In this document: piece by piece, positions 13,942-17,091 of the stretch
Position numbering within the stretch: position 1 is the stretch's first letter
How the letters are laid out: each line of letters begins with the position of its first letter
Assembly: GCA_021432655.1 (NCBI GenBank)
Contig: MU271445.1
Location: 44,579 to 64,578, forward strand
DNA from: Atractiella rhizophila
Taxonomy: Eukaryota
Reading direction: 5' to 3'
DNA: 20,000 nucleotides
The notes under the pieces: generated by a model
Databases searched by the model: none
What the model was told of the DNA's origin: nothing
The model's input: the letters and a program-made list of their open reading frames with translations, nothing else
Made by a program: the position numbers and the translations under genes

Positions 13942-16900
13942 ATGCCCTTCCCAGACCTGCAGCCGCCTCTCAACACCTTTACTGTGGGCTTGGGCGGCCT
14001 CACGGAGCTCACAAAGACCACGGCGAAGCATTTTCTGATGCCCTCTCACTCTCAAGACCTGTGCCCCTCCTCATTCCTTTCTTTCTAGAAGCTGAGTAGC
14101 TGGACAGGCCGGCGAATAAGGAGTTTGCTTATGATGCAGCATTCCATGTTATGCGAGGTGATTCCTCTCTTTTCGAAGGGAGGAGAGCTGAAGGAATCCA
14201 GATTTCAATGAACGGCTCGCACGACATACTGTGGAAGATGTACAGCGCTTTTCAGAGGCCTATGTGCCATCTCCTCCTTGTGAGTCGAATCTTTGCACTC
14301 CCTCTCAGCTACTCTGAAGAGCCTTGGTTGTCCAGGGATTCTCGTCCTCAAAACGATCATCTCTGCTGAGTCTTGTAAGGATGCGGACAACTACATTGTG
14401 CAAGCCATTGGAGAAGAGGACATGAACAAGGTCTTTGGTGGAACTCAATGGTGGAGGCGACGTCTCATCAATGGGGTTGAAGCAGAATGGATATCAATGA
14501 AGCGGTGCGGCTTCCTCTAGATTAACCAAGTCGATGGCTGAGGGAATCTTGGAGCAGGGACTGGAAAGGGCCGGATCTGCCTCAAGATTCGTCAGCCTCA
14601 TTGGACGATAACGAGCCTATGAGTCCGACGGGAGGGGAGGGTTTCGAATTCTTTTCACGCGTCCTCGGCTCTCGCCGTCAACATCCGCCGCAACCAGCAC
14701 CAGCAAACCCACCAGACTCAGTTCCCCTCCAAGGTTCGAAATCAGCGCCGCCAACGACGCCTTCTTCTCCCCCTACCACTTCTTCCAAACTTTCGCGTAG
14801 ACCCTCAATTGGGCAAAAGCTCTCCTCTTTCATGCGGAGGACGTCTAACGCAAGTCAGCATCCGAACCTCCCGCAAAGTACGATCACGACACCGAATACC
14901 AGTTCTCAGGATGAAAAGAAGCTGCCTAGTGGAATCGAAGCGGCTAGAGAGCAGCAATTGCCAAAGGCTGAGCGGACGGAGCATGATGAAGGAGAGTACG
15001 AGGAGCATTTGGACAGCATGCCTGTCATTCTGTACATTCAGTAGGTCATTCCTGCCATGTCTATTCTCGTTTGCTGAAAGGCAGACAGCGTGAGCTGCTT
15101 CTGCTTCTTCTTCCTTGACCTGAACGAGAGAAACAGGGAGGTGGTTTCTACTGGGGAGATATCAATACTCACAGGCAAGCATACCTTCTGCGGTCCTTTC
15201 CTTTCCGTTGTGACCACTTTTCTATTGGCAGATATACCATCTGGCGACATGCGCGCAAGATGGGAGGGCGAGCATTCGCCGTTCGCTATCGGCTGGCACC
15301 ACAGTTCCCTTTCCCTTGTGCTTTGGCAGACGTCCTCGCCGCGTATCTATACCTGATTCGCCCACCGAAAGATGCCAAACATCGTGCCATCGACCCGAAC
15401 AAGATCGTAATTGCAGGTGACTCGGCTGGTGGAAACCTCGCTCTAAATCTTCTCTGCGTGCTACGAGATCTAGACCTCCCCCTTCCTGCTGGAGGAGTCC
15501 TCATAAGCCCTTGGTGCGACCTCACTCACTCTTTTCCATCCGTCATCGCGAACGCAGACACGGACTTCTTGCGTATGTTACACTGTTTCAGTTCAGTTTA
15601 AAGTGACGAAATGGTGTACAGCACACTACGGATTCGTCCACAAGCCCTCCGCTCTATGGCCAGTGCCGTCGCTGCCCCATCCCCATCCAGAGAGCAAACG
15701 ATTCCGACCTATCGTCAGTGAATCAATCCGCCCGAAGAAGGGCGATAAACAGCGACCTGACGAAGCTACTGGAGAGGAGAAGGCAGACGATGACGGCCTC
15801 CTCAAGGTCATGATTGACGGTAAAACGATCGAGCTCTCCGAACAGATTCAAATGTATGCCACAACAGAACAACTGTGTTATCGATATGTGAACCCATTGA
15901 TGCAGCCTAGTTTGGGAGGTAAGTTGGATGATATCGATGGAAGCCTGCCGATAGACTGTCACAGGATTACCTCCTTTGCTCATCACCTGCGGTGATAAAG
16001 AACGCCTGCGGGATGAGATCATATATGTGTGTTCTTCAGCCACCTCAATGAGAAGGGCTAAACAACAGAGTAGCTTTCGCATAGGGCCTCAAACCCCTCG
16101 AAGTATCCCATTCGCCAATCTCTTCTAGATGCACAGGCAGAATACACGCAGAAGGCAGTACAGTATCGCCCAACAGACATCCACCTACAAATCTACGACG
16201 GCGTATGCCACGACTTCATCCTCTTCTCATTCACTACCCCTGCCAAATACCTCTTCCGGAGCGTCGCTAGCTTCACAAAATGGGTGCAAGCAGTACCCGA
16301 CACCCCTGTACAGACCGAAGAGCCGAATAATGGAGGAGTCGCTCTCAGTAGGAGACTTAGCGTCCTCAGGCTCGACAAAAAGGTCGAAGGACCAAGAAAC
16401 AAAGTCAGAGGATTGGATAAGACGTTCGCCCTTTCGTTGTCTGCATGCAACAGAAGTTGACCAGAGGCATAGCATCTATACCTCGTTGCAGCCATTCCAC
16501 GTACGTTCTTCCCCTCTTCTGAACAGCAATATTAATCCACATGTCCAGCGGCCAGTTTTTACTAATCACATGATACGAGAGCGGATCAATACATTCGGTG
16601 TGGTGCGGCCATTGGAGGCAGAAGAGGACATTGCTGTTTTACAACGACCGGTCGAGGAAGTGGGAGCCATACAAGAAGGGTAAGTGTATTGACATTGAAT
16701 ATCGGCGCATTATTGAAACATATTGGATAGCGCAATAAAGATGTACCTTGACGGATTTCGGCATCGAGACTCGAAGTACAAGTCTACTCTACGACGACTG
16801 GAGAGCGAAGTGGCAAAGAAGGAGAAGAAAGCTACAGCCGCAACGGAATCATTATTCCGACGGCGGAAACAGCCACCGCCGGACGACAACTTGACAGGAA

Positions 16901-17091
16901 TTACCAAGATACCAGGCCAACATCCGCCTCCTGGGTCGTTAGCTGGCCGAAGGAATACTGCTGACGCGAGAGAACTCATCAAAAGCTTCGAGGCACACAA
17001 GAACATGCCCATACACCCTCTTAATCTTTGGAGTGAGATTCACGACATCGGCGCCCTGGGGGATCGTCCCCCCAGACAAGAAAAATCTTGA
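13942..17091 (+). CDS. HSL-family (Abhydrolase_3) lipase/esterase, 14 exons: 13942-14060, 14108-14157, 14202-14279, 14336-14504, 14558-15040, 15089, 15137-15174, 15232-15572, 15622-15918, 15965-16026, 16074-16423, 16473-16500, 16549-16679, 16731-17091
   Basis: ILYIHGGGFYWG (needs the 1-nt exon), YRLAPQFPFPCALAD, nucleophile motif GDSAGG, LISPWCDL, GLPPLLITCGDKERLRDE, LQIYDGVCHD. I checked the phase of all 13 introns by hand (12 GT-AG, 1 GC-AG). Confidence 0.9.

Follow-up and report, generated by a model that had tools for sequence, protein, structure and literature searches.

How can an esterase gene be read through its catalytic motif when the two coding blocks that meet inside the motif do not share a reading frame? 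The question is raised by a gene for a family IV, or HSL-like, esterase with an Abhydrolase_3 domain in the root fungus Atractiella rhizophila, which lies on the forward strand of a window of 20,000 nucleotides (nt; NCBI GenBank assembly GCA_021432655.1, contig MU271445.1, positions 44,579 to 64,578; coordinates below are positions in this window). Exon 5 of the gene ends with the first two bases of the histidine codon of the HGGG motif, the glycine codons begin 97 positions further on, and the third base of the histidine codon is found next to neither edge. The answer reached here, to which we give a probability of about 0.93, is that the cytosine at 15089 is a true spliceosomal exon of one nucleotide, the sixth of 14 exons, which completes the histidine codon of HGGG. 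Mature RNA carries exactly one C at the joint and no such C stands at either exon edge in the DNA; its origin at C15089 is inferred from the rules for splice sites.

The site in the DNA

Exon 5 runs ...CTG TAC ATT CA to position 15040 and is followed by gtaggt (15041-15046). At the other end of the interval, aaacag (15131-15136) leads into GGA GGT GGT TTC from 15137. Codons of the upstream frame start at 15039 and those of the downstream frame at 15137, so that cutting out the 96 nt alone leaves the two frames one base apart, and a direct CA|GGA joining is out of frame, as the first-pass annotation of this DNA had argued. Midway lie gacag (15084-15088), C (15089) and gtgagc (15090-15095), which together place an AG-C-GT arrangement at 15087-15091; the letters and coordinates of the exon edges, of AG-C-GT and of GGAGGT are exactly those given by that annotation. 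Among the 24 C's in 15041-15136, C15089 is the only one preceded by AG and followed by GT or GC. C15068 has the GT after it only, with CT before, and C15095 has the AG before it only, with TG after. Since the DNA has a g at 15041 and a g at 15136, the C is no extension of either exon.

Splicing around C15089 gives introns 5 and 6 of 48 and 47 nt. The 11 further introns that the RNA supports measure 44-57 nt, and the claim that the two match the remaining introns in length therefore holds. The branch-like motifs proposed for both are likewise present, as CTGAA at 15074-15078 in intron 5 and as TTGAC at 15115-15119 and CTGAA at 15120-15124 in intron 6. CTGAA stands 11 nt (intron 5) and 13 nt (intron 6) ahead of the respective ACAG acceptors, and it also occurs 10-26 nt before the acceptor in three further introns of the esterase gene. 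When the 96-nt interior was shuffled in 200,000 trials, a central AG-Y-GT with both halves of at least 40 nt arose in 2.9% of them, and one with C in 1.3%. The pentamer AGCGT occurs 31 times over 40,000 positions (window, both strands).

Splicing across the interval was enumerated by listing all GT/GC..AG solutions with introns of at least 35 nt that keep the downstream FYWGDINTH frame open. This yielded 28 solutions, four with one intron and 24 with two, and an ungapped ortholog-like reading comes from a single one of them, namely 15041-15088 / C / 15090-15136. In the one-intron solutions the strand ahead of the HGGG motif is deleted or replaced. The 27 other canonical solutions are ruled out by the RNA described below, in which one C is the sole inserted letter.

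RNA and DNA contigs across the joint

Contigs of four public runs (X1-X4, of 20 runs found) were aligned to 13942-17091; these are assembled contigs and not raw reads. X1 and X2 behave as DNA, their contigs being unspliced; record 7 of X1 spans 14327-17091 and record 14 of X2 spans 14598-15891, each with 0 gaps. X3 behaves as RNA, with one 2504-nt contig at a depth of 187.4 in which every one of the 12 listed joints is found. The X4 data belong to a different study and supply a 343-nt contig at a depth of 3.3 with four of the 12 joints; it has single-nucleotide polymorphisms of its own, which argues that it is another strain, a few percent diverged.

In both X3 and X4 the joint from 15040 to 15137 (96 nt skipped, GT..AG) carries exactly one letter, a C, between sides of 35 and 38 letters, and the aligned pieces of X3 record 17 and X4 record 20 stop at 15040, the end of exon 5. 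The single C in the joints of both runs bears out the earlier proposal that C15089 completes the CAC of HGGG. Three outcomes had been named that would speak against this proposal, namely a direct fusion of CA to GGA, a different joint that restores the frame, and an insertion or deletion in the assembly; all three were looked for in X1-X4 and none was observed.

The last of these outcomes corresponds to an explanation in which a genome base is missing at one exon edge, through an assembly or sequencing error, and the 96 nt are a single ordinary intron. The GT..AG interval of 96 nt does exist, one absent base would account for the frame problem, and the window is not letter-perfect, as X1, X2 and X3 have four single-base differences from it in common (14807, 14849, 15415 and 16158). 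However, the DNA-type contigs X1 and X2 cross 15040-15137 unspliced with 0 gaps, they contain no inserted or deleted letter between 14172 and 17091, and an intron of 96 nt would be an outlier, at about 1.7 times the 57 nt that the remaining introns do not exceed. Because X1 and X2 are gapless and carry the same variants as the spliced X3, no base is missing from the assembly, and the chance that an error of this kind explains the frame shift is negligible.

A different explanation accepts the extra C and derives it from elsewhere, either from a non-canonical micro-exon (C15095 or C15068), from a non-canonical single intron, or from insertion of a C at the RNA level. The contigs show a single C between the exons but do not reveal its place of origin, and two other C's in the interval have one canonical flank. 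Every alternative nevertheless requires a non-canonical splice site, whereas C15089 requires nothing unusual, and C15068 would in addition require an intron of 27 nt, far under the 44-57 nt of this gene. Editing by insertion of C is not known to us from the nuclear mRNA of basidiomycetes. A source other than C15089 is therefore considered very unlikely.

Several points weigh against the one-nucleotide exon and should be set beside this evidence. The aligner gives one 96-nt skip plus a letter and not two joints, so the origin of the C at 15089 is splice-site logic. The material consists of contigs and not raw reads, from which isoform ratios, rare skipping and splicing order are not readable. 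X3 is without a study on record and, with its four differences common with X1 and X2, it may share their source. Furthermore, a metagenome scan (574 stretches matched, 290 relatives, best 80 compared, the closest with 73% identity) gave the AG-N-GT arrangement at the orthologous position in 0 of the 80 loci, none of which is a close relative.

The protein family and the deposited gene model

The PF07859 (Abhydrolase_3) profile matches the read-through of 15137-15598 with an E value of 9.8e-27 and 94.5 bits (cut-off 25). The first-pass annotation had named HGGG as a motif of the HSL family, which agrees with this match and with a report that HGGG forms the oxyanion hole in family IV esterases (PMC8767022). 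The GxSxG nucleophile elbow reads GDSAG, and candidate catalytic Asp and His stretches were recognised by eye in the C-terminal part of the deposited protein. The orthologue P0007 matches solved family IV esterases (e.g., 9izt, 3fak and 1evq) and HSL 8zvq. Given the role of HGGG in the oxyanion hole, inclusion of the C and exon 7 is predicted to be needed for activity.

A protein search with exon 8 (15233-15571) found 1897 proteins at E values of 1e-10 or lower among 3474 candidates, and the homologue comparisons use the best 120 of the 1897. The top match, P0001, is 'alpha/beta-hydrolase [Atractiella rhizophila]', with 822 amino acids (aa) and 100% identity; of the matches listed, those that follow at 70-79% identity belong to rusts and further Pucciniomycotina, and after them come Agaricomycetes. 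P0001 runs ...ILYI, Gln and then straight into YTIWRH, which shows that the deposited model connects 15040 directly with 15232 and omits the C together with the 38-nt exon 7, a loss of 39 nt that is in frame. The orthologues have LYIHGG..., about ten residues more and then ...THR-Y.IWR, ungapped. In the 119 other matches listed, the residue ahead of GG is H in 102, W in eight, P in two, F in one and T in one, and the motif is broken in five models.

Joining the RNA-supported exons gives a model of 14 exons and 13 introns, with a coding sequence of 2508 nt that encodes 835 aa and has one terminal stop. The 299 residues at its N-terminus and the 522 at its C-terminus are those of P0001, and the only change is that Q becomes H plus 13 residues. 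As such, HGGG is present in the RNA-based model with the 1-nt exon and absent from the deposited protein. The PF07859 match starts at profile position 22 in P0001 (E value 1.1e-30) compared to position 1 in the orthologues P0007 and P0025, a comparison made on the deposited model and the orthologues.

It could be argued that many of the transcripts do follow the deposited model, with exons 6 and 7 skipped together in a regulated manner to give a protein without the oxyanion-hole motif. The 39-nt skip from 15040 to 15232 keeps the frame, as encoded by the public P0001, and an artificial 1-nt exon in a potato invertase experiment was skipped in 33% of transcripts (PMC4674806). On the other hand, the skip joint is not listed in the X1-X4 contigs, which drop rare forms, and neither X3 nor X4 has a contig with it; the inclusion form was assembled at a depth of 187, a finding that bears only on skipping as the main form. 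Moreover, gene predictors cannot place exons of one nucleotide, so the deposited model is explained without any RNA. That standard predictors would miss this exon had been foreseen, and P0001, which leaves out the C and exon 7, is a case in point. The deposited model without these two exons is most likely a gene-predictor artefact, and substantial regulated skipping is very unlikely to be real.

Two observations on the same motif in other species came out of these comparisons. Firstly, W replaces H before GG in eight Sporobolomyces-type orthologues (P0011, P0012, P0014-P0017, P0019 and P0026), and F does so in P0050. In the metagenome locus L015 the W is contiguous in its DNA or RNA, which makes it look like a real lineage change of an 'invariant' histidine and not a model error. 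Secondly, the reading of the agaric models P0070, P0076, P0085 and P0113 is garbled precisely at HG|GGYYFG. This is where an intron (phase 1, second Gly codon) lies in the related loci L054, L067, L076 and L078, so these four agaric models are probably further annotation errors.

Proposed splicing mechanism

Removal of both introns 5 and 6 around C15089 would join CA, C and GGA into His-Gly, the opening of HGGG, and would keep the frame. Introns of 44-57 nt fall in the range where splice sites pair across the intron, which points to intron definition in this gene; exon definition would be unable to recognise an exon of one nucleotide. The branch-like A of intron 5 (15077) and the intron 6 donor (15090) are 13 nt apart. 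With this spacing there is probably no room for two spliceosomes at the same time, and the two introns are probably removed one after the other. Either order of removal would be chemically possible. The exon bases before a donor are usually C/A-A-G, and if intron 5 left first, the exon triplet ahead of the second donor would turn from AGC into CAC, which is nearer to this pattern and offers a slight argument for removal in the 5'-to-3' direction. The half-spliced joints 15040 to 15089 and 15089 to 15137 are not listed in the X1-X4 contigs, although contigs are not expected to show such forms. A stwintron, or a recursive ratchet point of zero length, was also considered as a description of the site and is ruled out, because one C stays in the RNA.

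The global alignment of introns 5 and 6 scores 6.0, which ranks them first or second among the 78 intron pairs of the gene (median -2) and may be a weak hint at a common origin or duplication. A more far-reaching scenario would make them sister copies, in which the second intron arose one base from the older one, within a stretch where the introns of basidiomycete relatives sit at various places, removal is strictly ordered and of a recursive type, and failure of the first step leads to the in-frame loss of 39 nt and thereby to a regulated, catalytically dead isoform that acts as an off switch. Taken as a whole, this scenario is improbable.

Related loci in metagenomes

Conservation of the C is seen at the RNA level only, in the close relative X4, and when set against the 80 metagenome loci the intron pair around a single C is seen only in Atractiella and this relative. 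In 71 of the 80 loci, some of which may be transcripts, the motif runs without a break immediately ahead of the query exon. Introns in or beside the motif occur in nine loci, all at positions other than those of Atractiella. For example, L002, the closest of the 80 at 73% identity, needs a 13-nt micro-exon for its HGGAYYWG stretch (2327-2477), flanked by introns of 70 and 68 nt, and this micro-exon is the sole GT-AG solution found. Similarly, L074, L075 and L079 (about 2310-2469), which are the same organism in three metagenomes, have a micro-exon of 13 or 16 nt that carries the HGG codons and is followed by a 34-nt intron; the HGG micro-exon is required in ten of ten solutions per locus. In L008, L054, L067, L076 and L078 the second Gly codon is split by a phase-1 intron. 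Introns at such varied positions indicate that the motif stretch is intron-dense among basidiomycete-like relatives. In addition, a possible donor after ..ER/HR was noted by eye at the position of Atractiella intron 7 in L054, L067, L076 and L078, and the intron that follows the ..HR codon seems to be old.

Structure of the gene

The features around the one-nucleotide exon are collected in Table 1. Exon 7 is bounded by the joints 15040 to 15137 and 15171 to 15229, the latter with three ambiguous letters in the contigs. One of the four possible positions of intron 7 (15175-15231) has canonical ends, and these are GC..AG. Its donor is thus GC, while the 12 other RNA-supported introns of the esterase gene (of 13) have GT donors.

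Table 1. Features of the Atractiella rhizophila esterase gene around the one-nucleotide exon, in window coordinates.
Feature	Position	Strand	Description
Abhydrolase_3 (family IV / HSL-like) esterase coding region	13942..17091	+	X3 joints resolved to GT/GC..AG ends
Exon 5	14558..15040	+	483 nt; ends ...ATT CA, the first two bases of the His codon (phase 2)
Intron 5	15041..15088	+	48 nt; gtaggt...gacag; found in X1 and X2 (DNA) but not in X3 and X4 (spliced)
Exon 6	15089..15089	+	Single C, read as the third base of the HGGG His codon (CA+C)
Intron 6	15090..15136	+	47 nt; gtgagc...aaacag
Exon 7	15137..15174	+	38 nt; codes GGGFYWGDINTH and two Arg bases; skipped by the deposited model
Intron 7	15175..15231	+	57 nt; GC..AG (gcaagc...ggcag)
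Exon 8	15232..15572	+	341 nt; Abhydrolase_3 domain core with the GDSAG nucleophile elbow

Elsewhere in the gene there is another small exon, of 28 nt, at 16473-16500. It is flanked by introns of 49 and 48 nt, the X3 joints agree with it and the deposited model has it. At 14111-14356 the DNA contigs of X1 and X2 follow two variant paths, with depths of about 91-126 versus 185-238, five to six differences and one inserted C near 14168-14171. These paths suggest two alleles or nuclei at 14111-14356; downstream of 14327 there is a single path.

Significance

With this exon, an RNA-backed exon of one base in a third fungal lineage, the Pucciniomycotina, joins the few on record. In the Atractiella exon the retained base is a pyrimidine and is sited within a catalytic motif. 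There is also a practical side, as the annotation error matters for how the enzyme is read: the public protein, without its oxyanion-hole motif and 13 residues, would be taken for a dead enzyme, and the transcript is predicted to encode an intact one. Frame-incompatible exon pairs across an apparent intron of about double length provide a searchable signature for fungi with short introns, and this could reveal more cases. Exons of one nucleotide are rare but known, and the Atractiella case is useful for annotation and not unprecedented.

Comparison with known systems

Exons of one nucleotide have been published from plants and fungi. They were described in Arabidopsis APC11 (PMC4674806) and in APC11 and VPS55 across land plants (PMC8831610). 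In Fusarium, an AG-G-GT arrangement within an apparent intron of 139 nt of the CYP621A P450 gene was confirmed by public reads (PMC12940212), and the long-read annotation of Coprinopsis cinerea holds 13 one-base exons, spread over 13 genes (PMC12230235). In the literature on Atractiella, micro-exons and stwintrons, as far as titles and the openings of abstracts tell and supplements apart, no description of the Atractiella esterase exon was found.

The Fusarium case shares much with the present one, since in both a fungal nuclear gene has an apparent intron of about double length that hides AG-N-GT, the base completes a codon in a conserved motif, and gene models miss the exon (PMC12940212). 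It differs in being an ascomycete P450 gene, compared with a basidiomycete esterase gene in Atractiella, and in its base, a G (AGGGT) in the middle of a Gly codon, where Atractiella has a C as the third base of a His codon (PMC12940212). The authors suggest that G may be favoured, which the C of Atractiella does not fit. The Fusarium exon is kept in at least 20 Fusarium orthologues, whereas that of Atractiella is seen in one close relative at the RNA level (PMC12940212).

The plant exons of APC11 and VPS55 resemble the Atractiella exon in that a single base lies constitutively between two spliceosomal introns and is missed by annotation (PMC4674806, PMC8831610). The APC11 authors propose intron definition and removal of one intron after the other, as argued above for Atractiella (PMC4674806). 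The plant cases differ in that they concern other genes, with longer introns and conservation across land plants, and in that they were demonstrated by reporter assays and RT-PCR, with the identity of the base shown not to matter (PMC4674806, PMC8831610). In Coprinopsis cinerea, as in Atractiella, basidiomycete nuclear exons of 1 nt are derived from transcripts and their omission breaks gene models (PMC12230235). This resource differs in covering a member of the Agaricomycotina through a genome-wide catalogue, and its list might include the orthologous esterase (PMC12230235).

Beyond spliceosomal genes, a one-base exon is on record from placozoan mitochondria. The gene in question, cox1, is organellar and is said to have self-splicing introns, so that it would not be a spliceosomal case. 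There, an exon of one base pair was found by deep RNA sequencing (PMC5436844). Ratchet points (PMC4674806) and stwintrons (PMC12403724) are alike in that two reactions take place on adjoining sites, probably not simultaneously. However, ratchet points (AG|GT) and stwintrons, in which a donor is split by an inner intron, leave no nucleotide, and the Atractiella site leaves one base (PMC4674806, PMC12403724). As exons of one nucleotide have already been published in plants and fungi, the Atractiella exon is best seen as a new case of a known kind.

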